IMG/VR virus record: IMGVR_UViG_2534681657_000015
Location: 1 to 11,524 of that record
DNA length: 11,524 nucleotides
Origin: a virus
Lineage: Duplodnaviria > Heunggongvirae > Uroviricota > Caudoviricetes
Direction: 5' to 3' (one strand)
How positions within the stretch are numbered: the first letter of the stretch is position 1; every line of letters starts with the position of its first letter. The notes beneath the pieces are model-generated. The model was not told the origin of the DNA and made no database searches. It saw only the letters and a list, made by a program, of their open reading frames with translations. A program made the translations under genes and the position numbers. Below, piece after piece: positions 1 through 11,524 of this stretch.

Positions 1-1284
1 TTACTTCTTCGCCTCTGCAACCACTTTACTACCCACGCCGCGGTTATTGTATTCCCACATGCGGTTGTAGTTAGTGTCATTCAGATTGCGCTGTATTTCG
101 TCGTTATCATCTACGCTGCCGGTATTACCCGCAAACGGACGATTAGAGATCACCGCATCGGCCCACGGTTTAGCCGTGTTAAAACCTTCGTTGATGGCGC
201 TATCACGGATCACCACCTGACCGTTGGTATTGGCATCAACATCCAGCGAGCGGCCCAGTTGCGCCACACCATCACCGAAAGCATTGAAACGGCTGTTTAC
301 GGCGAGGAAACCGTAGTAAATGTTGGACAGCGTAGCCGGTGCAAACACATACGCTTCTTGCTGAGTACGTGAGTTCACCACGCGGAATTCGGTGTTATCG
401 AACACCACTGCGCCGCGACCAGAAACGATATCCACATCCCCTTCAATGTAGCTGTTGGTCACCAGCGTACGCGGCTGACGGTTGGTTTCCAGACGGTTCT
501 GCACACCGCTGTTGGTGACAAAGAAGGTGTTCTGACGACCGAGAATGTTAACGTTGTTAATCTGTACCTGGTCACCATCAGTACGCAGTGCCACCGCCGG
601 ATGGTTACCTGCATCTACGCTATCGCCCAGCGTGTTTTCGATGGTCAGATTTTGCAGTTGCAGGCCATTGTTTTGTGACCAGAAGACCGCAGAGCAGAGA
701 ACACCGATACTGTCGCTGCGTTTGCTCTGGCAGCTATCGTACATATACCACGCTGGTTTACCTGGCATATATTTGCCGCGCGGGTTGACGTCGTGACGCC
801 AGTCGGCAGGGCTCATGCCACCATCAAGGGAAAGCCCAATCTTCACATCAATCGGTTTTTCACCTGTACCGTACAGAGTAATTCCACCCGGAGCGGCAGG
901 GACATATACCGTTCCCTGATACTCACCAGGCATCACGGCAATATACTGGCGCTTGTTGGTACGCTTGATAATTGCCGCATCTACCGCCGCCTGAATCGTG
1001 GTATGCGTTACACCTTGAGTGCCCGCCGGGCCGACAACAAAGTCAGGTTGCGCAGGCAGGGTAATCGGGGAAGGATTCCACGCTGCAGCACCTGGTGTCA
1101 GGGATGCAAAATAGTGTTGAGCATCGAAATTCTGCGCTTCTTTTGCCGACAGAATCGGGCGAGAAGAGGTACCAGGCGCGGTTTGATCAGAAGGACGTTG
1201 ATCGGGCGGGGTTGAGCTACAGGCGGTCAGCGTCACGCCAAAAGCCAATGCCAGCGCCAGACGGGAAACTGAAAATGTGTTCAC
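1..1284 (-). CDS. ybhC: Host outer-membrane lipoprotein of the pectinesterase-like family (YbhC-type), complete ORF with signal peptide and lipobox
   Basis: 427-aa ORF; N-terminus MNTFSVSRLALALAFGVTLTAC is a lipoprotein signal peptide with an L-T-A-C lipobox; the body is Gly/Asn-rich and beta-helix-like, typical of pectinesterase-fold proteins. ybhC is the gene I recall flanking E. coli attB-lambda on the gal side, consistent with the adjacent att core. Confidence 0.85.
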   Translation of the reverse strand: MNTFSVSRLALALAFGVTLTACSSTPPDQRPSDQTAPGTSSRPILSAKEAQNFDAQHYFASLTPGAAAWNPSPITLPAQPDFVVGPAGTQGVTHTTIQAAVDAAIIKRTNKRQYIAVMPGEYQGTVYVPAAPGGITLYGTGEKPIDVKIGLSLDGGMSPADWRHDVNPRGKYMPGKPAWYMYDSCQSKRSDSIGVLCSAVFWSQNNGLQLQNLTIENTLGDSVDAGNHPAVALRTDGDQVQINNVNILGRQNTFFVTNSGVQNRLETNRQPRTLVTNSYIEGDVDIVSGRGAVVFDNTEFRVVNSRTQQEAYVFAPATLSNIYYGFLAVNSRFNAFGDGVAQLGRSLDVDANTNGQVVIRDSAINEGFNTAKPWADAVISNRPFAGNTGSVDDNDEIQRNLNDTNYNRMWEYNNRGVGSKVVAEAKK

Positions 1285-1320
1285 AGGTTGCTCCGGGCTA
1301 TGAAATAGAAAAATGAATCC

Positions 1321-1428
1321 GTTGAAGCCTGCTTTTTTATACTAAGTTGGCATTATAAAAAAGCATTGCTTATCAATTTGTTGCAACGAACAGGTCACTA
1401 TCAGTCAAAATAAAATCATTATTTGATT
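1321..1428. other. attL: Prophage attL (B-O-P'): 15-bp lambda core GCTTTTTTATACTAA at 1331-1345 followed by the lambda P' arm with arm-type Int sites (AGGTCACTAT, CAGTCAAAAT)
   Basis: Direct read: gaagcctGCTTTTTTATACTAAgttggcattataaaaaagcattgcttatcaatttgttgcaacgaacaggtcactatcagtcaaaataaaatcattatttg matches the lambda attP P' arm from memory; the left side of the core is bacterial (B arm) sequence; the int stop codon lies inside the P' arm as in lambda. Confidence 0.85.
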
Positions 1429-2489
1429 TCAATTTTGTCCCACTCCCTGCCTCTGTCATCACGATACTGTGATGCCATGGTGTCCGACTTATGCCCGAGA
1501 AGATGTTGAGCAAACTTATCGCTTATCTGCTTCTCATAGAGTCTTGCAGACAAACTGCGCAACTCGTGAAAGGTAGGCGGATCCCCTTCGAAGGAAAGAC
1601 CTGATGCTTTTCGTGCGCGCATAAAATACCTTGATACTGTGCCGGATGAAAGCGGTTCGCGACGAGTAGATGCAATTATGGTTTCTCCGCCAAGAATCTC
1701 TTTGCATTTATCAAGTGTTTCCTTCATTGATATTCCGAGAGCATCAACATGCAATGCTGTTGGGATGGCAATTTTTACGCCTGTTTTGCTTTGCTCGACA
1801 TAAAGATATCCATCTACGATATCAGACCACTTCATTTCGCATAAATCACCAACTCGTTGCCCGGTAACAACAGCCAGTTCCATTGCAAGTCTGAGCCAAC
1901 ATGGTGATGATTCTGCTGCTTGATAAATTTTCAGGTATTCGTCAGCCGTAAGTCTTGATCTCCTTACCTCTGATTTTGCTGCGCGAGTGGCAGCGACAGG
2001 GTTTGTTGTTATATGGCCTTCAGCTATTGCCTCTCGGAATGCATCGCTCAGTGTTGATCTGATTAACTTGGCTGACGCCGCCTTGCCCTCGTCTATGTAT
2101 CCATTGAGCATTGCCGCAATTTCTTTTGTGGTGATGTCTTCAAGTGGAGCATCAGGCAGACCCCTCCTTATTGCTTTAATTTTGCTCATGTAATTTATGA
2201 GTGTCTTCTGCTTGATTCCTCTGCTGGCCAGGATTTTTTCGTAGCGATCAAGCCATGAATGTAACGTAACGGAATTATCACTGTTGATTCTCGCTGTCAG
2301 AGGCTTGTGTTTGTGTCCTGAAAATAACTCAATGTTGGCCTGTATAGCTTCAGTGATTGCGATTCGCCTGTCTCGGCCTAATCCAAACTCTTTACCCGTC
2401 CTTGGGTCCCTGTAGCAGTAATATCCATTGTTTCTTATATAAAGGTTAGGGGGTAAATCCCGGCGCTCATGACTTCGCCTTCTTCCCAT
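1419..2489 (-). CDS. int: Tyrosine site-specific integrase, lambda Int type
   Basis: 356-aa ORF beginning MGRRRSHERRDLPPNLYIRNNGYYCYRDPRTGKEFGLGRDRRIAITEAIQAN, matching lambda Int in length and sequence from memory; C-terminal catalytic region with HELRS...LGH...Y; sits immediately beside attL. Confidence 0.97.
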   Translation of the reverse strand: MGRRRSHERRDLPPNLYIRNNGYYCYRDPRTGKEFGLGRDRRIAITEAIQANIELFSGHKHKPLTARINSDNSVTLHSWLDRYEKILASRGIKQKTLINYMSKIKAIRRGLPDAPLEDITTKEIAAMLNGYIDEGKAASAKLIRSTLSDAFREAIAEGHITTNPVAATRAAKSEVRRSRLTADEYLKIYQAAESSPCWLRLAMELAVVTGQRVGDLCEMKWSDIVDGYLYVEQSKTGVKIAIPTALHVDALGISMKETLDKCKEILGGETIIASTRREPLSSGTVSRYFMRARKASGLSFEGDPPTFHELRSLSARLYEKQISDKFAQHLLGHKSDTMASQYRDDRGREWDKIEIK

Positions 2490-2685
2490 TTCTGATCCTC
2501 TTCAAAAGGCTACCTGTTACTGGTCGATTTAAGTCAACCTTTACCGCTGATTCGTGGAACAGATATTCTCTTCCATCCTTAACCGGAGGAGGGAATATCC
2601 TGCATTCGCGCACCCATCGACGAACTGTTTCAAGGCTTCTTGGGCGTCGCTGGCGAGCGTTCCACTCCTGAAGTGTCAAGTACAT
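2467..2685 (-). CDS. xis: Excisionase, lambda Xis type
   Basis: 72-aa ORF MYLTLQEWNARQRRPRSLETVRRWVRECRIFPPPVKDGREYLFHESAVKVDL; overlaps the int start by 23 nt as in lambda. Confidence 0.95.
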   Translation of the reverse strand: MYLTLQEWNARQRRPRSLETVRRWVRECRIFPPPVKDGREYLFHESAVKVDLNRPVTGSLLKRIRNGKKAKS

Positions 2686-2710
2686 CGCAAAGTCTCCGCA
2701 ATTACACGCA

Positions 2711-2732
2711 AGAAAAAACCGCCATCAGGCGG
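2711..2732 (-). terminator. Candidate intrinsic terminator on the minus strand (stem CCGCC / loop TGAT / GGCGG, then a TTTTTT run), overlapping the stop codon of the upstream 55-aa ORF
   Basis: Plus strand 2711-2732 agaaaaaaccgccatcaggcgg; its reverse complement gives a 5-bp GC stem followed by a U-run in the leftward transcript. Confidence 0.4.
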
Positions 2733-2892
2733 CTTGGTGTTCTTTCAGTTCTTCAATTCGAATATTGGTTACGTCTGCATGTGCTATCTGCGCCCACAGC
2801 ATCCAGTGGTCATAGCAGTCGCTGATGTTCTCGGCTTCGATAACTCTGTTGAATGGTTCTCCATTCCATTCACCTGTGACTCGGAAGTGCAT
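2725..2892 (-). CDS. Small hypothetical phage protein (55 aa), MHFRVTGEWNGEPFNRVIEAENISDCYDHWMLWAQIAHADVTNIRIEELKEHQAA
   Basis: Hand translation of the minus strand; ATG at 2892-2890 preceded by a GGGGA Shine-Dalgarno about 6 nt upstream; position corresponds to a small unnamed ORF I recall just upstream of xis in lambda. Not in the supplied ORF track (below its length cutoff); the overlapping 66-aa track ORF 2784-2984 is in another frame and has no comparable RBS. Confidence 0.45.
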   Translation of the reverse strand: MHFRVTGEWNGEPFNRVIEAENISDCYDHWMLWAQIAHADVTNIRIEELKEHQAA

Positions 2893-3134
2893 TTATCATC
2901 CCCATAAAACAAACCCCGCCGTAGCGAGTTCAGATAAAAGAAATCCTCGTCAGTGCGAGGATGCTGTTCATTGCTGCTATACACTTTTTTGCTCTCAACG
3001 TAAGCGGTAGCCCATTCTGTTGGGTTGGTGCAGTTGCTTTTAGGAAATGCTATTTACCCCTTAAATGTCGGCTGAAAGAGCTAAAATCCATGCAAAAAAT
3101 TTACGCAATTTTGTGTATTATTGTGCAGTAAGTA

Positions 3135-3737
3135 ATGAGCTATTTTCTGCGCAAAAAATGGATGGTAAATTTGTCCGGGTCAGGAAAAATTTTATGGGCG
3201 CTAAACATGAAAAAAGATTCGTATCCTTATTTGATTTGCATGACAGTTTCAGGGCTGATCTTTATTTTCCTTTTCTTCTGGTGGCGGGCAGATATCTACA
3301 GGGTCACGTTTCTTAATCAGAGTATATCCCACTATTACATTCTGTTTAGCATGGGAATAGCTTTTCTGTTATCTCTGTTTTGGGTTAAGAAGGGGATAGT
3401 AAAACAAAGCGGCTGGAAGAGTCTGTCAGCATACCTTAAGGTTTATGCAGGGATGTGCATATTTGCTGGATTTTTTCTGATTATACCCCTTACGACACTA
3501 ACTTATTTTTTGCCTGGAGAGACATCGTCTTATGTTGCACCGTATCGGTATACTTCCGGTAGTTCAAAAAGTTGTTCTGGAGCTGAGGTGGATGACCCCG
3601 ATCTACATGAGAATATTCGCATTTGCTATCCGTATGGCAATTATGAGTACGATAATATTATCTATGTTGAAAAGAAAATTAATATATTAGGTGCGGTAGT
3701 GACATATGCACAGACCGCGCGTGATGATACTGAATGA
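3135..3737 (+). CDS. Hypothetical integral membrane protein (about 177-200 aa) with three predicted TM helices and a Cys-containing soluble C-terminal domain; accessory (moron-like) gene, function unknown
   Basis: Long plus-strand ORF in a clearly AT-rich segment; hydrophobic stretches YLICMTVSGLIFIFLFFWW, YYILFSMGIAFLLSLFWV and GMCIFAGFFLIIPLTTLTYFL; C-terminal ~75 aa hydrophilic with three Cys. Start is uncertain: candidates are 3135 (longest), 3162 and 3207 (MKKDSY..., typical of a membrane protein N-terminus); none has a strong SD. Opposite orientation to the surrounding early-left operon. Confidence 0.6.
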   Translation: MSYFLRKKWMVNLSGSGKILWALNMKKDSYPYLICMTVSGLIFIFLFFWWRADIYRVTFLNQSISHYYILFSMGIAFLLSLFWVKKGIVKQSGWKSLSAYLKVYAGMCIFAGFFLIIPLTTLTYFLPGETSSYVAPYRYTSGSSKSCSGAEVDDPDLHENIRICYPYGNYEYDNIIYVEKKINILGAVVTYAQTARDDTE

Positions 3738-3781
3738 TATAGTATATAGCGGGCAAGTTTTAGTTAATTTATCGAGGTAAT

Positions 3782-3805
3782 ATAATTTACCTCGACTCGT
3801 TTGTT
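3782..3805 (+). terminator. Perfect 9-bp inverted repeat TCGAGGTAA-tataat-TTACCTCGA just downstream of the membrane-protein gene; possible terminator or operator-like palindrome
   Basis: Direct read of 3782-3805; followed by ctcgtttgttc (only moderately T-rich); the loop is the hexamer TATAAT. Confidence 0.3.
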
Positions 3806-3947
3806 CTGGTATTAATATTTCGCTTTACGACCGATTTTTATCTGATGATATCATGCGGTTTTCATATACTGACTTACTGTCTTTTCTCCGTTAGCGATTT
3901 TCTCCTGCTCAGCGATGATTTTATCTTTGGCTTCTAGTTAATTTCGC

Positions 3948-4169
3948 TCACTTCGAACCTCTCTGTTTACTGATAAGCTCCAGATCTTGCTGGCAACTGG
4001 CACAAGTCCGACAACCCTGAACGGCCAGTCGTCTTCGTTCATCTATCGGATCGCCACACTCACAACAATGAGTGGCAGATATAGCCTGGTGGTTCAGGCG
4101 GCGCATTTTTATTGCTGTGTTGCGCTGTAATTCTTCAATTTCTGATGCTGAATCAATTATGTCTGCCAT
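3948..4169 (-). CDS. DksA/TraR-family C4 zinc-finger protein (73 aa), likely RNA-polymerase secondary-channel binder
   Basis: MADIIDSASEIEELQRNTAIKMRRLNHQAISATHCCECGDPIDERRRLAVQGCRTCASCQQDLELISKQ: a CxxC-(17)-CxxC zinc-finger preceded by an acidic, probably coiled-coil N-terminus, the architecture of TraR/DksA-type proteins; size and position fit the lambda Orf73 TraR-like protein as I recall it. Confidence 0.7.
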   Translation of the reverse strand: MADIIDSASEIEELQRNTAIKMRRLNHQAISATHCCECGDPIDERRRLAVQGCRTCASCQQDLELISKQRGSK

Positions 4170-4220
4170 CTTTCATTAATCCCTGAATTGTTGGTTAATA
4201 CGCTTGAGGGTGAATGCGAA

Positions 4221-4247
4221 TAATAAAAAAGGAGCCTGTAGCTCCCT
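4221..4247 (-). terminator. Candidate intrinsic terminator on the minus strand (GGAGC / TACAG / GCTCC followed by TTTTTTATT)
   Basis: Plus strand taataaaaaaggagcctgtagctccct; the reverse complement gives a stem-loop plus U-run between the 71-aa ORF and the TraR-like gene. Confidence 0.35.
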
Positions 4248-4267
4248 GATGATTTTGCTTTTCATGT

Positions 4268-4483
4268 TCACCGTTCCTTAAAGACGCCGTTCAACATGCC
4301 GATCGCCAGGCTTAAATGAGTCGGTGTGAATCCCATCAGCGTTACCGTTTCGCGGTGCTTCTTTAGTACGCTACGGCAAATGTCATCGACGTTTTTATCC
4401 GGAAACTGCTGTCTGGCTTTTTTGATTTCAGAATTAGCCTGACGGGCAATGCTGCGAAGGGCGTTTTCTTGCTGAGGTGTCAT
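4268..4483 (-). CDS. Hypothetical small phage protein (71 aa from MTPQQENALRSIARQANSEIKKARQQ...; the track extends it to 93 aa from an ATG at 4549)
   Basis: Minus-strand ORF; the 4483 start forms an ATGA overlap with the stop of an upstream 27-aa micro-ORF, suggesting translational coupling; the 4549 start has no SD and is immediately preceded by an in-frame stop. Confidence 0.45.
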   Translation of the reverse strand: MTPQQENALRSIARQANSEIKKARQQFPDKNVDDICRSVLKKHRETVTLMGFTPTHLSLAIGMLNGVFKER

Positions 4484-4563
4484 TGAACAAGCCCCATGTC
4501 GGCAAGCATAAGCACACAGAATATGAAGCCCGCTGCCAGAAAAATGCATTCAGTGGTTGTCAT
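4480..4563 (-). CDS. Candidate 27-aa hydrophobic micro-ORF (MTTTECIFLAAGFIFCVLMLADMGLVQ), translationally coupled on both sides
   Basis: Hand translation; its ATG overlaps the orf63-like stop (ATGA at 4563-4560) and its stop overlaps the ATG of the 71-aa ORF (ATGA at 4483-4480). Too short for the ORF track. Confidence 0.25.
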   Translation of the reverse strand: MTTTECIFLAAGFIFCVLMLADMGLVQ

Positions 4564-4751
4564 ACCTGGTCTCTCTCATCTGCTTCTGCTTTCGCCACCA
4601 TCATTTCCAGCTTTTGTGAAAGGGATGCGGCTAACGTATGAAATTCTTCGTCTGTTTCTACTGGTATTGGCACAAACCTGACTCCAATTTGAGCGAGGCT
4701 ATGTGCCATCTCGATACTCGTTCTTAACTCAACGGGAGATGCTTTGTGCAT
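4560..4751 (-). CDS. Small early-left protein, lambda orf63-like (63 aa)
   Basis: [63 protein letters not shown]; size and position (second ORF upstream of exo) match lambda orf63 from memory. Confidence 0.65.
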   Translation of the reverse strand: MHKASPVELRTSIEMAHSLAQIGVRFVPIPVETDEEFHTLAASLSQKLEMMVAKAEADERDQV

Positions 4752-4906
4752 ACAGCTCCCCGTTTATTATTTATCTCCTCAGCCAGCCGCTGTGCTTTCA
4801 GGGGATTTCTGATAACAGAAAGGCCGGGAAATACCCAGCCTCGCTTTGTAACGGAGTAGACGAAAGTGATCGCACCTACCCGGATATTATCGTGAGGATG
4901 CTTCAT
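4724..4906 (-). CDS. Small early-left protein, lambda orf60a-like (60 aa from [17 protein letters not shown]...)
   Basis: The ATG at 4906-4904 forms an ATGA overlap with the exo stop (4903-4905); 60 aa matches lambda orf60a; the track's longer 62-aa version starts at 4912. Confidence 0.65.
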
Positions 4907-5583
4907 CGCCATTGCTCCCCAAATACAAAACCAATTTCAGCCAGTGCCTCGTCCATTTTTTCGATGAACTCCGGCACCATCTCGTCAAAACTCGCCATGT
5001 ACTTTTCATCCCGCTCAACCACGACATAATGCAGGCCTTCACGCTTCATACGCGGGTCATAGTTGGCAAAGTACCAGGCATCTTTTCGCGTCACCCACAT
5101 GCTGTACTGCACCTGGGCCATGTAAGCCGACTTTATGGCCTCGAAACCACCGAGCCGGAACTTCATGAAATCCCGGGAGGTAAACGGGCATTTCAGCTCA
5201 AGGCCATTGCCGTCACTGCATAAACCATCGGGAGAGCAGGCGGTACGCATACTTTCGTCGCGATAGATGATCGGGGATTCAGTAACATTCACGCCGGAAG
5301 TGAATTCAAACAGAGTTCTGGCGTCGTTCTCGTACTGTTTTCCCCATGCCAGCGCCTTAGCATTAACTTCCGGAGCCACACCGGTGCAAACCTCAGCCAG
5401 CAGGGTGTGGAAGTAGGACATTTTCATGTCAGGCCACTTTTTTCCGGAGCGGGGTTTTGCTATCACATTGTGAACTTCTGAAGCGGTGATGACGCCGAGC
5501 CGTAATTTGTGCCACGCATCATCCCCCTGTTCGACAGCTCTCACGTCGATTCCGGTACGCTGCAGGATAATGTCCGGTGTCAT
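4903..5583 (-). CDS. exo: Lambda exonuclease (Red-alpha), 5'-3' dsDNA exonuclease
   Basis: 226-aa [68 protein letters not shown]..., matching lambda Exo from memory in length and sequence; ATGA overlap with the bet stop. Confidence 0.97.
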
Positions 5584-6365
5584 GCAGCCACCTTCTGCTC
5601 AGTGGCTTTCTGTTTCAGGAATCCAAGAGCTTTCACTGCTTCGGCCTGTGTCAGTTCTGACGATGCGCGAATGTCGCGGCGAAATATCTGGGAACAGAGC
5701 GGCAATAAGTCGTCATCCCATGTTTTATCCAGGGCAATCAGCAGAGTGTTAATCTCCTGCATGGTTTCATCGTTAACCGGAGTGATGTCGCGTTCCGGCT
5801 GACGTTCTGCAGTGTATGCGGTATTTTCGACAATGCGCTCGGCTTCATCCTTGTCATAGATACCCGCAAATCCGAAGGCGAGACGGGCACACTGAATCAT
5901 GGCTTTATGCCGTAACATCCGTTTGGGATGCGACTGCCACGGTCCGGTGATTTCTCTGCCTTCGCGGGTTTTGAATGGTTCGCGGCGGCATTCATCCATC
6001 CACTCGGTAACGCAGATCGGATGATTGCGGTCCTTGCGGTAAATCCGGCATGTGCAGGATTCATTGTCCTGCTCAAAGTCCATGCCATCAAACTGCTGGT
6101 TTTCATTGATGATACGGGACCAGCCATCAACGCCCACCACCGGAACGATGCCGTTCTGCTTGTCAGGGAAGGCGTAAATTTCTTTCGTCCACGGATTAAG
6201 GCCGTACTGGTTGGCGACGATCAGCAATGCGATGAACTGCGCATCGCTGGCATCACCTTTAAATGCCGTCTGGCGAAGAGTGGTGATCAGTTCCTGTGGG
6301 TCGACAGAATCCATGCCGACGCGTTCAGCCAGCTTCCCAGCCAGCGTTGCGAGTGCTGTACTCAT
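5580..6365 (-). CDS. bet: Red-beta single-strand annealing protein (recombinase)
   Basis: 261-aa [75 protein letters not shown]..., lambda Bet. Confidence 0.97.
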
Positions 6366-6370
6366 CCGTT

Positions 6371-6787
6371 TTATACCTCTGAATCAATATCAACCTGGTG
6401 GTGAGCAATGGTTTCAACCATGTACCGGATGTGTTCTGCCATGCGCTCCTGAAACTCAACATCGTCATCAAACGCACGGGTAATGGCTTTTTTGCTGGCC
6501 CCGTGGCGTTGTAAATGATCGATGCAGAGTGATTCAAACAGGTGCTGGGGCAGACCTTTTTCCATGTCGTCTGCCAGTTCTGCCTCTTTCTCTTCACGGG
6601 CGATCTGCTGGTAGTGACGCGTCCAGCTCTGAGCCTCAAGACGATCCTGAATGTAATAAGCGTTCATGGCTGAACTCCTGAAATAGCTGTGAAAATATCG
6701 CCCGCGAAATGCCGGGCTGATTAGGAAAACAGGAAAGGGGGTTAGTGAATGCTTTTGCTTGATCTCAGTTTCAGTATTAATATCCAT
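6371..6787 (-). CDS. gam: Gam, RecBCD nuclease inhibitor (138-aa long form; the short form would start at the internal [13 protein letters not shown])
   Basis: 138-aa ORF ending ...[22 protein letters not shown], lambda Gam from memory; located immediately upstream of bet. Confidence 0.95.
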
Positions 6788-6885
6788 TTTTTATAAGCGT
6801 CGACGGCCTCACGAAACATCTTTTCATCGCCAATAAAAGTGGCGATAGTGAATTTAGTCTGGATAGCCATAAGTGTTTGATCCAT
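6742..6885 (-). CDS. kil: Kil (host cell-division inhibitor), 47 aa
   Basis: Internal Met of the 89-aa track ORF gives [47 protein letters not shown] (47 aa); the upstream part of the track ORF overlaps cIII in another frame. Confidence 0.8.
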
Positions 6886-7018
6886 TTTTTGGGACTCCTG
6901 GCTGATTAAGTATGTCGATAAGGCGTTTCCATCCGTCACGTAATTTACGGGTGATTCGTTCAAGTAAAGATTCGGAAGGGCAGCCAGCAACAGGCCACCC
7001 TGCAATGGCATATTGCAT
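6854..7018 (-). CDS. cIII: CIII, FtsH (HflB) protease inhibitor, 54 aa
   Basis: Hand translation [54 protein letters not shown], matching lambda CIII from memory; below the ORF-track length cutoff. Confidence 0.85.
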   Translation of the reverse strand: MQYAIAGWPVAGCPSESLLERITRKLRDGWKRLIDILNQPGVPKNGSNTYGYPD

Positions 7019-7090
7019 GGTGTGCTCCTTATTTATACATAACGAAAAACGCCTCGAGTGAAGCGTTATTGGTATGCGGTAACGCCGCGC

Positions 7091-7459
7091 TCAGGCGGCT
7101 TTGATAGTCATATCATCTGAATCAAATATTCCTGATGTATCGATATCGGTAATTCTTATTCCTTCGCTACCATCCATTGGAGGCCATCCTTCCTGACCAT
7201 TTCCATCATTCCAGTCGAACTCACACACAACACCATATGCATTTAAGTCGCTTGAAATTGCTATAAGCAGAGCATGTTGCGCCAGCATGATTAATACAGC
7301 ATTTAATACAGAGCCGTGTTTATTGAGTCGGTATTCAGAGTCTGACCAGAAATTATTAATCTGGTGAAGTTTTTCCTCTGTCATTACGTCATGGTCGATT
7401 TCAATTTCTATTGATGCTTTCCAGTCGTAATCAATGATATATTTTTTGATGTTTGACAT
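7091..7459 (-). CDS. ea10: Ea10-like early protein (122 aa), acidic; reported ssDNA-binding-like function in lambda
   Basis: 122-aa ORF MSNIKKYIIDYDWKASIEIEIDHDVMTEEKLHQINNFWSDSEYRLNKHG...; size and position (next gene upstream of cIII) match lambda ea10. Confidence 0.75.
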   Translation of the reverse strand: MSNIKKYIIDYDWKASIEIEIDHDVMTEEKLHQINNFWSDSEYRLNKHGSVLNAVLIMLAQHALLIAISSDLNAYGVVCEFDWNDGNGQEGWPPMDGSEGIRITDIDTSGIFDSDDMTIKAA

Positions 7460-7479
7460 CTATTCATATCCTCACAGAT

Positions 7480-7506
7480 AAAAAATCGCCCTCACATTGG
7501 AGGGCA
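7480..7506 (-). terminator. Candidate intrinsic terminator on the minus strand (GCCCTC / CAATGT / GAGGGC then GATTTTTTAT), just upstream of ea10
   Basis: Plus strand 7480-7506 taaaaaatcgccctcacattggagggc; the reverse complement gives a 6-bp GC-rich stem and a U-run; position is compatible with a tL-type terminator that N antitermination would read through. Confidence 0.4.
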
Positions 7507-7719
7507 AAGAAGATTTCCAATAATCAGAACAAGTCGGCTCCTGTTTAGTTACGAGCGACATTGCTCAGTGTATTCACTCGTTGGAATGAATACACAGTGC
7601 AGTGTTTATTAGTATGCCTGTCTTTTAACCACATCAGGCTCGGTGGTTCTCGTGTACCCCTACAGCGAGAAATCGGATAAACTCTATTCACCCCTACAGA
7701 GAGCAAAAGAGAAACGCCG

Positions 7720-8301
7720 ATGAACAACTCATGGTGGCAGGAACTAATGCATTTTTTCCTGCAAGGAATGACACTTAAACAGTTGATTCATATGCTAATC
7801 ATCCTGATCATATTGATTATTGTTATGCCTGTAAGCGTAAAAGAATGGATAAACCTGCATAATCCAGAAATCCTTCCTCATTACTGGATGTATTACATCC
7901 TGTTGTTTTGCGTTAGCTATGTGCTTAACGGCGTTGTTAATTCCGCTTATCACGCTGTGACTGAAAGAATTGAGATATTCGCTGCTCAGAAGCGCAAATC
8001 TAAAGAAGAGAAATACGTGCAAGATTTGTTTGATTCGTTAACTCTTGGAGAAAGAGCGTATTTGGCATTCGCTGTAGCCGCTAATAACCAGCTAAAGACA
8101 GAAAAGGGAAGCCCTGAAGCAATCTCATTGCTCGAAAAAGGGCTTCTTATTCGGGTACCTTCTGCTACTGGATATCCTGAAATCGACCGTTTTGTTATCC
8201 CGGAACGCTATAGAAATGAGTGCTACATTAGGTTTGCTGGGAAGAAAGACAGTCTTATGGATGAACTTATCGCTCAGGATAAGCATGGCAAAAACAAGTA
8301 A
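7720..8301 (+). CDS. sieB: Superinfection exclusion protein B (SieB-type), inner-membrane protein
   Basis: 193-aa plus-strand ORF with N-terminal TM segments (LIHMLIILIILIIVMPV, YWMYYILLFCVSYVLNGVV), transcribed opposite to the early-left operon between ea10 and N, as sieB is in lambda/P22. Confidence 0.8.
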   Translation: MNNSWWQELMHFFLQGMTLKQLIHMLIILIILIIVMPVSVKEWINLHNPEILPHYWMYYILLFCVSYVLNGVVNSAYHAVTERIEIFAAQKRKSKEEKYVQDLFDSLTLGERAYLAFAVAANNQLKTEKGSPEAISLLEKGLLIRVPSATGYPEIDRFVIPERYRNECYIRFAGKKDSLMDELIAQDKHGKNK

Positions 8302-8317
8302 TTAGCAAATTAATTTA

Positions 8318-8590
8318 TCATCTCGCCGTCAGTTGTTTTGATTTCCGGTAGCCTGCCGCGTAAATGGCTACGTTTGGCAGGCAAATACTTCCACTGCATT
8401 CATCTGCCTTCTTGCAGCGAAGGCTTCCGAGTGATGCTGCTTTGTCTGCTCTGACGCAACCAGAGAGCTTTAGCGCAATTTTTCGCGCCAGTCGCTGTTC
8501 TTGCATTGCCTGCTCACGTTGAGCCTGTCTGCGTGCTCTGCGGCGATTTCTGGCGTTATTGTCAGCCAGATATGTAATGACTACTGCCAT
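8318..8590 (-). CDS. N: N-family transcription antiterminator (90 aa) with an N-terminal arginine-rich motif (NARNRRRARRQAQREQ) and a P22 gp24/phage-21-type C-terminus
   Basis: First gene downstream of the PL/nutL region on the minus strand; N-terminal arginine-rich motif; the C-terminal tail LPNVAIYAAGYRKSKQLTAR resembles the end of P22-type N proteins as I recall them; clearly not lambda N. Confidence 0.7.
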   Translation of the reverse strand: MAVVITYLADNNARNRRRARRQAQREQAMQEQRLARKIALKLSGCVRADKAASLGSLRCKKADECSGSICLPNVAIYAAGYRKSKQLTAR

Positions 8591-8699
8591 GTTGACCTCC
8601 GATGATTAACTTTGGCGGTGACGCGCCGGGTGCTTATCTTCCGGTTGCCGTCGTGCAGCTGCACTTCACGTCACCCCAAAGCCAACTACTCTTTGGTTC

Positions 8700-8740
8700 C
8701 CGCATTTCGGCGGGACAATCCCATCAATGTTAAAGAGCCT
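8700..8740 (-). promoter_or_regulatory. nutL: nutL: boxA (GCTCTTTAACA, 8729-8739 on the minus strand) and boxB hairpin (UCCCGCCGAAAUGCGGGA, 8700-8717)
   Basis: Minus-strand read aggCTCTTTAACAttgatgggattgTCCCGCCGAAATGCGGGAacc between PL and N; the identical boxA/boxB pair recurs downstream of cro on the plus strand. Confidence 0.55.
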
Positions 8741-8770
8741 GCCAATCTGTTCCGTTTGGCTACCAGCGTC

Positions 8771-8850
8771 CTGCCGATGACTTAAATTTAAGATTTCTTT
8801 AACTATTGGTCAAGAGTGTTTTTGAAGAAAACTTAAATTTTGTTGCGAAG
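8771..8850 (-). promoter_or_regulatory. OL/PL region: leftward promoter (-35 TTGACC at 8798-8803, -10 TAAATT at 8775-8780, 17-bp spacer) overlapping P22-type TTAAG...CTTAA operator half-sites
   Basis: Direct read of the reverse complement TTGACCaatagttaaagaaatctTAAATT; operator-like atttaagatttctttaa resembles the OR site atttaagtgttctttaat. Confidence 0.5.
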
Positions 8851-8870
8851 CTTAAGTTTTGCTTTGATTT

Positions 8871-8895
8871 TTAAAGGAAAGAAAAAAAGGGGCGA
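8871..8895 (-). terminator. Intrinsic terminator downstream of the repressor gene (AAGGGGC / ATTC / GCCCCTT followed by a TTTTTTTC run on the minus strand)
   Basis: Plus strand gaaaaaaaggggcgaatgcccctt at 8871-8894, immediately 3' of the c2 stop (8903). Confidence 0.55.
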
Positions 8896-8902
8896 ATGCC
8901 CC

Positions 8903-9553
8903 TTATGGAAGGTTTGCTATTTTTGCATCGACAACTACACCGATGATTTTGCAGTTCCCGTTGATCTCAATCATCGGATATTGTGGGTTAAGTGGTTTTA
9001 GAAACCTTCTGCCAGCATCAATAACTAACTTCTTGAAAGTTGCCTCGTTTTCTCCTTCGAGCTTTGCCACTACCAGCTTCCCATTACGAGGTTCTACTTC
9101 AGGATCGACTAGTATTATCATCCCTTCCGGGATGCTAAGCCCGGCTGGAGCCGTCATCGAATCACCCTTTACGTCCAGCCAAAACGAATCTTCTGAACAA
9201 TCTACGGTTGTATCGTACCAGTTATCTATTGCACGCTTATGATATGGCTCTACAGCTTCCATCCAACATCCTGCGCTTACCCAACTAATTAGAGGATACG
9301 AACCTCTTGGATCATGCCTGCTGTGATAGGCAATGTTTGAAAGACTATCTTCTCCTTTCAACAAGTAATCAGGGGAGCACTGTAAAGCCTTGGCTAAAGC
9401 CAATAGGTTTTCGCCATTGGGCTCAGTTTCAGAACGCTCCCATTGGGAAATAGCAACATTAGACACGCCAACCATCTTGCCGAGGGCAGCCTGCCTAATC
9501 TTAAGTTCTTTTCTGCGAGCGCGAATACGCTCACCCATCAGTTGTGTATTCAT
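8903..9553 (-). CDS. c2: Phage repressor, P22 C2 type (lambda CI family): N-terminal HTH DNA-binding domain plus C-terminal LexA-like autocleavage domain
   Basis: 216-aa ORF MNTQLMGERIRARRKELKIRQAALGKMVGVSNVAISQWERSETEPNGENLLALAKALQCSPDYLL..., near-identical to P22 C2 from memory; Ala-Gly cleavage site (VSAGCW) and a Ser/Lys catalytic pair (GDSM ... K) are present. Confidence 0.95.
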   Translation of the reverse strand: MNTQLMGERIRARRKELKIRQAALGKMVGVSNVAISQWERSETEPNGENLLALAKALQCSPDYLLKGEDSLSNIAYHSRHDPRGSYPLISWVSAGCWMEAVEPYHKRAIDNWYDTTVDCSEDSFWLDVKGDSMTAPAGLSIPEGMIILVDPEVEPRNGKLVVAKLEGENEATFKKLVIDAGRRFLKPLNPQYPMIEINGNCKIIGVVVDAKIANLP

Positions 9554-9554
9554 A

Positions 9555-9621
9555 GTTAAGACATCTTAAATAAACTTGACTTAAGATTCCTTTGATAGAT
9601 AATTTAAGTGTTCTTTAATTT
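9555..9621. promoter_or_regulatory. OR operator cluster with divergent promoters: three P22-type operators (agTTAAGAcaTCTTAAat, acTTAAGAttcCTTTgat, atTTAAGTgtTCTTTAAt); PR -35 TTGACT (9576-9581) and -10 GATAAT (9598-9603)
   Basis: Direct read of the 80-bp intergenic region between the divergent c2 and cro genes. Confidence 0.6.
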
Positions 9622-9633
9622 CGGGGCGAGTCT

Positions 9634-9819
9634 ATGTACAAGAAAGATGTTATCGACCACTTCGGAACCCAGCGTGCGGTAGCTAAAGCGTTAGGCATTA
9701 GCGATGCAGCAGTCTCTCAGTGGAAGGAAGTCATCCCAGAGAAAGACGCCTATCGACTGGAAGTCGTTACAGCTGGCGCCCTGAAGTATCAAGAAAGTGC
9801 TTATCGCAAAGCGGCATAA
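9634..9819 (+). CDS. cro: Cro repressor, P22 type (61 aa)
   Basis: MYKKDVIDHFGTQRAVAKALGISDAAVSQWKEVIPEKDAYRLEVVTAGALKYQESAYRKAA, P22 Cro-like, with HTH QRAVAKALGISDAAVSQW. Confidence 0.9.
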   Translation: MYKKDVIDHFGTQRAVAKALGISDAAVSQWKEVIPEKDAYRLEVVTAGALKYQESAYRKAA

Positions 9820-9825
9820 GCAAAT

Positions 9826-9869
9826 TGCTCTTTAACAGTCATGGTCCTTATTCCCGCCGAAATGCGGGA
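9826..9869 (+). promoter_or_regulatory. nutR: nutR: boxA (GCTCTTTAACA, 9827-9837) and boxB hairpin (UCCCGCCGAAAUGCGGGA, 9852-9869)
   Basis: Plus strand ttGCTCTTTAACAgtcatggtccttatTCCCGCCGAAATGCGGGAat just downstream of cro; same elements as nutL in the opposite orientation. Confidence 0.55.
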
Positions 9870-9927
9870 ATACAACGCGCATCAGTTGGTGCGTATAACT
9901 TCTTATTTGTTAAGGAAATACTTACAT

Positions 9928-10206
9928 ATGCAACTTACAAGTACTCGCAAGAAAGCGAATGCAATCACAAGCAACATCCTGAATCGAATTGCTGTACGTG
10001 GTCAGCGAAAGGTTGCTGATGCATTAGGGATTAATGAATCGCAAATTTCGCGATGGAAAGACAGCTTTATCCCAAAGATGGCCATGCTTCTGGCTGTGCT
10101 GGAGTGGGGTGTTGAAGACGAGGAATTAGCAAAGCTAGCAAAGAAAGTAGCCATGGTGCTGACAAAAGAAAAGCCTCAAGACTGCTGCAACAGTTTTGAG
10201 GCCTGA
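9928..10206 (+). CDS. c1: CII-family transcriptional activator, P22 C1 type (92 aa)
   Basis: Internal start of the 121-aa track ORF: MQLTSTRKKANAITSNILNRIAVRGQRKVADALGINESQISRWKDSFIPKMAMLLAVLEWG..., preceded by an AAGGA SD at 9912-9916; the 9841 start would place nutR inside the coding region. Confidence 0.85.
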   Translation: MQLTSTRKKANAITSNILNRIAVRGQRKVADALGINESQISRWKDSFIPKMAMLLAVLEWGVEDEELAKLAKKVAMVLTKEKPQDCCNSFEA

Positions 10207-10240
10207 TGTAGAAAGACTGGATCAATCCACAGGAGTCATT

Positions 10241-10268
10241 ATGACAAATACAGCAAAAATACTCAACT
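10241..10268 (+). pseudogene. O: 5' fragment of the replication initiator gene O (MTNTAKILNL...), interrupted after about 9 codons by the IS insertion
   Basis: AGGAG SD at 10231-10235 then atgacaaatacagcaaaaatactcaacttg = MTNTAKILNL, the N-terminus of lambda O (MTNTAKILNFGR...) from memory; the reading frame is broken at 10269 where the IS terminal repeat (TGAACCGCCCCGGG...) begins. Confidence 0.7.
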
Positions 10269-10322
10269 TGAACCGCCCCGGGAATCCTGGAGACTAAACT
10301 TCCTGAGAAAGAGGTAAACAGG

Positions 10323-10649
10323 ATGACTAAAAATACTCGTTTTTCCCCCGAAGTCCGTCAACGGGCAGTCCGTATGGTTCTGGAAAGTCAGGGCGAATAT
10401 GACTCACAATGGGCGACAATTTGTTCCATTGCTCCAAAGACTGGCTGTACGCCGGAGACTCTGCGTGTCTGGGTTCGCCAGCATGAGCGGGATACCGGGG
10501 GCGGTGATGGAGGGCTCACCACCGCTGAACGTCAGCGTCTGAAAGAGCTGGAGCGTGAAAATCGTGAACTGCGCCGCAGTAACGATATTCTTCGCCAGGC
10601 TTCCGCTTATTTTGCGAAGGCGGAGTTCGACCGCCTCTGGAAAAAATGA
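10323..10649 (+). CDS. IS3-family transposase OrfA (HTH / leucine-zipper DNA-binding subunit), 108 aa
   Basis: [60 protein letters not shown]...[36 protein letters not shown]. Confidence 0.9.
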
Positions 10650-11524
10650 TGCCACTGCTGGATAAGCTGCGTGAGCAGTACGGGGTCGGACCGCTATGCA
10701 GCGAACTGCATATTGCCCCGTCAACGTATTACCACTGTCAGCAACAGCGACATCATCCGGATAAACGCAGTGCCCGTGCGCAGCGCGATAACTGGCTGAA
10801 GAAAGAGATACAGCGCGTATACGATGAAAATCACAAGGTATACGGTGTGCGTAAAGTCTGGCGTCAGTTGTTACGGGAAGGTATCAGAGTGGCCAGATGC
10901 ACTGTGGCACGTCTCATGGCGGTTATGGGACTTGCCGGTGTTCTCCGGGGTAAAAAGGTCCGTACGACCATCAGCCGGAAAGCCGTTGCCGCAGGCGACC
11001 GCGTAAACCGTCAGTTCGTGGCAGAACGACCTGACCAGCTGTGGGTGGCTGATTTTACTTACGTCAGCACATGGCGGGGCTTCGTCTATGTGGCGTTCAT
11101 CATTGATGTGTTTGCCGGATACATCGTGGGGTGGCGGGTCTCATCGTCCATGGAAACGACATTCGTGCTGGATGCACTGGAGCAGGCGTTATGGGCCCGT
11201 CGACCGTCCGGCACGGTCCATCACAGTGATAAAGGTTCTCAGTATGTATCGCTGGCCTACACACAGCGGCTTAAGGAAGCCGGATTACTGGCATCAACAG
11301 GAAGTACAGGCGACTCGTATGACAACGCGATGGCGGAGAGCATCAATGGTCTTTACAAAGCGGAGGTAATACACCGTAAGAGCTGGAAAAACCGTGCAGA
11401 AGTAGAACTGGCCACACTCACGTGGGTGGACTGGTATAACAATCGACGATTGCTGGAAAGGCTGGGCCATACTCCTCCGGCAGAAGCAGAAAAAGCTTAT
11501 TATGCTTCCATCGGAAACGATGAT
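10646..11524 (+). CDS. IS3-family transposase OrfB (DDE/RNase-H-fold catalytic domain), -1 frame relative to OrfA, 3' end off the window
   Basis: Hand translation from the ATG at 10646 gives [29 protein letters not shown]...[38 protein letters not shown]...[11 protein letters not shown]...[20 protein letters not shown]..., an open frame to the window end containing integrase-core motifs (D...D...E). Absent from the ORF track, presumably because no stop codon lies inside the window. Confidence 0.85.

Follow-up and report, generated by a model that had tools for sequence, protein, structure and literature searches.

An IS629-group element interrupting replication gene O near its start in a lambda-like prophage of Escherichia coli

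An insertion sequence (IS) of the IS629 group appears to have transposed into the replication gene O of a lambda-like prophage residing at att-lambda, leaving an O-null allele and a prophage which would no longer be able to initiate replication from its own ori-lambda. To this reading, which is drawn from a stretch of DNA of 11,524 nt (hereafter referred to as the window), we assign a probability of about 0.85. The window was annotated by means of an ORF listing and Pfam scans, with Rfam being used for RNA, and the features recognised are collected in Table 1. Downstream of cII, the stop codon of which lies at 10206, an AGGAG motif (10231-10235) precedes an ATG at 10241 that opens the peptide MTNTAKILN, followed by L. 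The O remnant comprises 28 nt (nine codons and one nucleotide) and is identical to the intact O of loci L002-L031 and to O of lambda up to 10268/10269, the T at 10269 being assignable either to O or to the IS. Twenty-two related prophage loci were gathered by exact-protein look-up, and every alignment between them and the window ends exactly at 10269: the related loci go on as intact O with AAC TTC GGC AGA GGT, whereas the window proceeds with AAC T and then directly TGAACCGCCCCGGG. The remnant can be called O because it and the region ahead of it are exactly colinear with the corresponding DNA of intact O genes. The preliminary description had recognised a Shine-Dalgarno sequence, an ATG and the peptide MTNTAKILNL as the start of a lambda-type O interrupted after nine codons. 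The 22 aligned loci and a 99.97% identical relative with an intact O are in full agreement with this, the break point requiring correction to nine codons plus 1 nt.

The relative in question is a prophage of E. coli 103605 (locus L026, NZ_CP025920.1), the closest one to the window, which differs from it at three of 10,269 positions over window positions 1-10269. Its O is intact and codes for a protein of 299 aa, 298 of which are identical in lambda O, and it is followed by P (231/233). The four iterons of ori-lambda are found inside this O at nt 349-435, in the positions annotated in lambda, the insertion point of the window lying ∼320 bp to their left, as was to be expected from the earlier statement that ori-lambda lies within O. 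Judged by the alignment, L026 effectively represents the empty site of the insertion. On these grounds, and because a synteny of 10.3 kb continues up to the IS and stops precisely there, a coincidental match of the peptide MTNTAKILN, a possibility which the preliminary description had itself raised, was ruled out. Since the flanking 10.3 kb and a prophage in which O is intact differ at only three positions, the insertion is probably recent on an evolutionary scale.

The O frame reads on into the IS as a fusion ORF of 18 codons, nine of them native, and stops at 10295-10297. The origin-binding domain Phage_rep_O (PF04492) is absent from the window, in which just these nine codons of O are left. 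Because the reading frame ends after 18 codons, no O protein with an origin-binding domain is predicted to be made from the normal start, and the allele is regarded as null. For annotation, we recommend treating the ORF at 10241 as a pseudogene fragment of O and the genes that follow it as a transposase of the IS629 group.

Table 1. Features of the window, with positions counted from its first nucleotide.
Feature	Position	Strand	Remarks
ybhC (host gene)	1-1284	-	From the ORF listing; contiguous with attL
attL core, equal to the lambda att common core GCTTTTTTATACTAA	1331-1345	+	Exact match; between ybhC and int
int and xis, intact	int 1419-2489, xis 2467-2685 (span 1419-2685)	-	Pfam Phage_integrase, Arm-DNA-bind_1
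Orphan gene for a 200-aa protein	3135-3737	+	Opposite to the pL operon, in place of lambda ea8.5/ea22
Prophage repressor, P22 c2-like (HTH and S24 peptidase), intact	8903-9553	-	Peptidase_S24 E=6e-31, HTH_3 E=6e-17
cro, intact	9634-9819	+	Pfam P22_Cro E=9e-28; upstream of O
cII/c1, intact	9928-10206	+	Pfam Phage_CII E=2e-44; upstream of O
pO promoter and OOP-like antisense RNA with terminator hairpin	10158-10266	-	Retained; -35 at 10261-10266, -10 at 10238-10243
Remnant of replication initiator gene O	10241-10268	+	ATG, 8 codons and 1 nt; same as intact O
IS629/IS1203-group element of the IS3 family (assigned)	10269-11524	+	Same orientation as O; first 1256 of 1310 bp; left inverted repeat (IRL) about 10269-10293
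IS orfA, intact	10323-10649	+	108 aa; HTH_Tnp_1 E=8e-13
-1 frameshift region	10604-10720	+	A6 run at 10641-10646 and ALIL pseudoknot
IS orfB (DDE/rve domain), -1 frame	10646-11524	+	Last 4 codons and stop past the window end

The inserted DNA is gaplessly colinear with full copies of 1310 bp, to which it is 99.4-99.8% identical and which are annotated in complete genomes (PGAP) as 'IS3 family transposase, programmed frameshift'; copies of 95-99.8% identity number in the thousands in E. coli chromosomes and plasmids. The left end at 10269 begins with TG and is mirrored by CCCGGGGCGGTTCA, the right end of full copies (L001, L044 and L045; 99.4-99.5%), with ∼23 of 25 positions of the inverted repeats matching. 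By comparison with L001 and other full 1310-bp copies, the window's own right IS end lies 54 nt outside. The -1 frame is free of stop codons from 10601 to 11524 and matches the Pfam families rve (E=8e-28), HTH_21 and rve_3, while the full-length ALIL model (RF01497) is matched with 120.2 bits (gathering score 50; E=2e-31). The hallmarks of the IS3 family are thus present, namely an HTH-containing orfA and a DDE (rve) orfB in frames 0 and -1, and an A-run with a structured frameshift signal, and the element can be assigned to the IS629/IS1203/IS3411 group of this family. The preliminary description, too, had proposed an IS3-family element with a terminal repeat at 10269, a complete orfA and an orfB in the -1 frame. 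The family is upheld by the transposase domains, the pseudoknot and the colinear 1310-bp copies, the terminal repeat coincides with the end of full copies, and both the intactness of orfA and the frame of orfB stand, but orfB is cut short by the end of the window, 12 nt ahead of its stop codon.

The element resembles the isoforms IS629, IS1203 and IS3411 in its TG left end, two reading frames and ALIL pseudoknot and, by extrapolation from full copies, in a length of 1310 bp and a CA right end with imperfect inverted repeats, and it is ∼96% identical to copies annotated as IS1203 in O157:H7 and other strains. IS629 sub-types are known to differ by 4-5%, IS1203 and IS3411 being isoforms (Rump et al., PMC3271280), and IS629 generates target duplications of 3-4 bp (PMC3271280). 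What distinguishes the present copy from those of IS629, IS1203 and IS3411 is a private substitution in OrfA, I40T, and at least 2 nt of difference from every copy found. A previously undescribed IS was considered as well and ruled out, given the 99.8% identity to known copies. The exact OrfA with I40T occurs in 157 collection blocks only, none of them on a contig longer than 200 kb and most of them plasmids with enterotoxin or dispersin/aat genes. The nearest copies at the nucleotide level (2-3 differences in 1256 nt) are carried by the IncFIA/FIC plasmids NZ_CP025921.1, CP025908.1 and CP025968.1, which come from isolates from human diarrhoea or diarrhoeal stool in Gambia, Mali and Chile. The first of these is a plasmid of strain 103605, the chromosome of which holds the empty-site prophage. 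Taken together, these sequence relationships suggest that the prophage strain belongs to the 103605 lineage and that the IS derives from that plasmid, and a plausible history would be transposition from a plasmid of this kind to the prophage in a close relative of 103605.

The remainder of the window is assigned to the left arm of a mosaic lambda/P22-hybrid prophage integrated at att-lambda of E. coli. The chance expectation for the attL core is 0 (200 shuffles), and the alignment with lambda begins at 1331. Int and Xis share 354 of 356 and 71 of 72 residues, respectively, with the lambda proteins, and the exo/bet/gam/kil/cIII block is ∼98% identical to lambda DNA. A full-length cIII thermoregulator RNA (RF01804; 88.5 bits) was detected on the minus strand at 6973-7031 and is consistent with a lambda-derived left arm. 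The cIII region is followed by a DUF2528 gene, sieB and a gene for an N-family antiterminator, the latter two being full length according to Pfam scans; a PADLOC search returned no match for SieB. The immunity region is P22-like, not lambda-like, sharing 83% identity with P22 immC and 91% with phage N7. Hence, at the sequence level, the earlier claims that int, xis and attL are intact and that immunity and exclusion genes have been retained hold true, the latter by virtue of the S24 repressor, sieB and N. The orphan 200-aa protein found no match in either Pfam or PADLOC, and its C-terminal 88 aa match PHROG 1416, a family of unknown function. The exact protein is present in 4,685 collection blocks, with a prophage at ybhC in all 10 places shown, and its gene is a putative moron-like accessory gene.

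One feature absent from the preliminary description is located at the break point itself. The sole promoter-like site on the minus strand of this region has TTGAGT at 10266-10261 and, 17 nt further on, a CATAAT that ends at 10238 and is accompanied by an extended TG. An RNA transcribed on this strand from about 10231 would form a strong hairpin followed by UUUUCUUUU (z=-2.9) and would overlap the 3' end of cII. Both the site and the RNA correspond in position to lambda pO/oop, and the RNA matched no Rfam family, even at E<=1. The IS stops 2 nt short of the -35 hexamer on its upstream side, leaving the core promoter in place with its upstream DNA swapped for IS sequence. The activity of pO modulates transcription from pR and lambda replication (PMC3985674); any effect of the altered upstream DNA would be moot if O is null.

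As to the arrangement to the right of the IS, no copy of the left junction was found by megablast in 5,426 complete E. coli genomes, nor by exact-pattern scans of genome, metagenome and viral contig collections, and in the same three kinds of collection there was no instance of the right junction of a simple insertion, with a duplication of 0-5 nt allowed. Since the insertion looks recent, we are somewhat inclined to favour a simple insertion with a 3-bp duplication, ACT, and the rest of O after the IS. Such an insertion would read ...CTGGCAGCCTGA...CCCGGGGCGGTTCA, ACT and then TCGGCAGAGGTAACTTT, O to its stop codon, and P; the resumption of O at nt 29 after the 3-bp duplication would read CCCGGGGCGGTTCA, ACT, TCGGCAGAGGTAAC.

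It is instructive to compare the seven cases of an IS629-type element in a lambda-type O that surfaced in the junction megablast of complete genomes, a sample which favours the same orientation and positions near the start of O. Three are simple insertions, found at O nt 230 of O157:H7 F6294 (duplication TAG), nt 242 of strain 124 (GTT) and nt 435 of O103:H2 FWSEC0007 (GAC). In the other four, DNA to the right of the IS has been lost, the deletion taking away ori, P or more: O145:H28 RM12761 (L001, 4026-5622), with the IS at nt 230, lacks O nt 231-838; at nt 351 of L049 the adjacent DNA is gone and the IS runs into unrelated sequence; and the elements at nt 444 of L044 and nt 552 of L045 run into the upstream region of quuD and into ninX', respectively. 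The loss of DNA in these four complete-genome lineages makes it quite conceivable, at somewhat less than even odds, that the IS of the window likewise marks the edge of a deletion or inversion, with the rest of O, ori-lambda and maybe also P, nin, the right arm and attR missing or relocated, in which case the remnant would neither replicate nor excise. This is countered by the recent look of the insertion, the empty-site prophage being different at three positions in 10.3 kb, by the IS features, all of which are intact, and by the three simple insertions, according to which that outcome is also common. The proposal of the preliminary description, a prophage that excises but cannot replicate, would require attR and the right arm, both of which are situated beyond the window.

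According to the mechanism proposed here, the IS would have moved by copy-out-paste-in transposition, its OrfAB transposase being produced by the programmed -1 frameshift, and would have landed between nt 28 and 29 of O, in the orientation of O and of pR transcription and between pR and the downstream genes. After inactivation of the repressor, pL and pR would still be transcribed, and N antitermination should allow transcription from pR to traverse the IS and reach P and the genes behind it. The polarity of an insertion of this kind on P and its relief by N belong to textbook knowledge. In the course of lambda replication, which requires both proteins, O binds to the four iterons of ori-lambda within the O gene and DnaB is delivered by P; survivors obtained by selection for the loss of lambda replication include insertions in O (Hayes et al. 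2018, PMC6022878). Given this known requirement (PMC6022878), ori-lambda could not be fired by the prophage on its own in the absence of O, and the outcome would be a replication-dead prophage still providing immunity and SieB exclusion. If a defective prophage is taken to be one that has lost at least one function essential for lytic growth and is retained in the chromosome, then the present one, with O cut to 18 codons and attL contiguous with ybhC, would qualify, its replication defect being deduced from the published role of O (PMC6022878).

Replication competence in the native host is conceivable insofar as co-resident lambdoid prophages can sometimes complement the defects of others, and defective prophages of O157 were replicated and packaged with such help (PMC2669165). 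Genomes that contain two prophages of the same immunity together with O/P modules do exist, L013 and L014 in one chromosome being an example, so that O might be supplied in trans by another lambdoid prophage. Translation might also restart in O downstream of the IS, as codon 22 of the intact gene is an in-frame GTG with AGGAG ahead of it, GGACAGGAGCGTAATGTG. We nevertheless consider it improbable that the prophage stays competent by either route: O complements poorly in trans, and co-expression of the N-terminal part of P blocks this complementation (PMC6022878), and the product of a restart would miss 21 N-terminal residues of the origin-binding domain. For judging this product, a search for a solved structure of O found none. 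Unless evidence to that effect is available, the prophage should be left out of counts of inducible or replication-competent prophages. Finally, a misjoined contig, or one ending at a repeated IS, with O intact in the real genome, is very hard to credit even though the window ends within a multi-copy repeat and its exact junction is found in no public collection searched, because the junction sits precisely at the canonical TG terminus of the IS, as in real insertions, independent O insertions of the same IS type are present in several finished genomes, and a contig break caused by a repeat makes no junction of unique DNA with an IS.

The O-null prophage may not have been fully functional to begin with. 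The full-length prophage of the relative (L032, NZ_CP025920.1, 612000-652000) has a tail gene split by ISCro1 of the IS66 family, an IS100 next to rha and a frameshifted ren, and because of these existing lesions its lineage would appear to have been decaying already. The O insertion may therefore be one more lesion in a decaying prophage, not the event that made the prophage cryptic. The prophage of L032 also carries ompC- and TagO-like cargo genes.

A second prophage of the same lineage has lost O in a different way. Over 10,269 nt, locus L006 (CP050215.1, 10314-10632) shares 99.94% identity with the window, and a different element interrupts its O near codon 70; the sequence at the end of this element, GGTAATGACTCCAACTTACTGATAGTG, is presumably an IS1 end. 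The remainder of L006 is stored as N; both L006 and L029 consist partly of runs of N, and they carry different lesions. L006 represents an independent IS insertion into O within one prophage lineage. Among the differences between the two prophages is a run of five T in the window versus four in L006 at 8819, in the intergenic region between N and cI (pL/operator); others are located at 2901, 2914, 9140 and 9482 (both of the latter within cI) and 9625.

In addition to this IS1-like insertion, which hints at recurrence, elements of the type described here occupy at least seven separate sites between O nt 28 and 552 in different lineages, and in O145:H28 RM12761 and O157:H7 F6294 two IS subtypes that are only 96% identical have entered O at exactly the same point, nt 230. 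The target of the window (10259-10272), ATACTCAACT followed across the insertion point by TCGGCAGA (starting with TCGG), and that at nt 230, ATTCTCAACTTAG followed by CGAGA (L026 17321-17338; O nt 215-232), form a direct repeat of 78%. This resemblance might point to a weak target preference, with the insertion registers differing by 3 nt and the sample being tiny. One may speculate that the 5' half of O is a preferred landing zone of IS629-group elements, or that knock-outs of O are selected because they spare the host a lethal replication of the prophage, either of which would make the acquisition of an IS by O a recurrent, convergent step of domestication. We regard this as unlikely on present numbers, since the survey, which favoured same-orientation insertions near the start of O, is too small to show an excess.

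The other insertions in O of lambdoid prophages are like the one described here in IS type, gene and orientation, with O annotated as split or as a partial pseudogene (PGAP). Their carriers are O145:H28 RM12761/RM13516, O157:H7 F6294, O103:H2 FWSEC0007, 124, FY26, NCTC11151, FDAARGOS_1301 and 2020N21-246. In contrast to the insertion at nt 28 of the window, which occurs in 0 of 5,426 complete genomes, theirs are located at O nt 230, 242, 351, 435, 444 and 552. Lambda r32, the classical IS2 insertion, is not counted as evidence here. The defective prophages of E. coli O157 Sakai (Asadulghani et al. 2009, PMC2669165) are similar in having been inactivated piecemeal by IS elements and deletions with immunity and other genes kept, and Sp3 of this strain, which is without replication genes, neither circularizes nor replicates (PMC2669165). 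Unlike the Sakai pool, the window comes from another host lineage and shows a single identifiable IS in an otherwise lambda-identical O/P module. Laboratory O-null or 'replicative-killing-defective' mutants of lambda (Hayes et al. 2018, PMC6022878) offer a further parallel, as insertions or deletions in O abolish initiation at ori-lambda and survive induction, with polar effects on P possible (PMC6022878). Those mutants, however, were selected in engineered non-excisable prophage fragments, whereas the event in the window is natural. As for the element, 62% of the IS629 copies of O157 sit in prophages (PMC3271280), and Stx2a phages vary mainly in the position of IS629 (PMC4587872).

The IS, the gene that it entered and the phenomenon itself have all been described before, and the allele at O nt 28 is a new instance, not a new kind. 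Its importance beyond annotation is slight, although as a marker it could help to type strains of the lineage to which E. coli 103605 and its sister isolates are related. Insertion of IS elements into prophage genes, O included, is a commonplace and well-known route of decay; if the recurrence in O exceeded chance, it would inform how hosts disarm lambdoid prophages.
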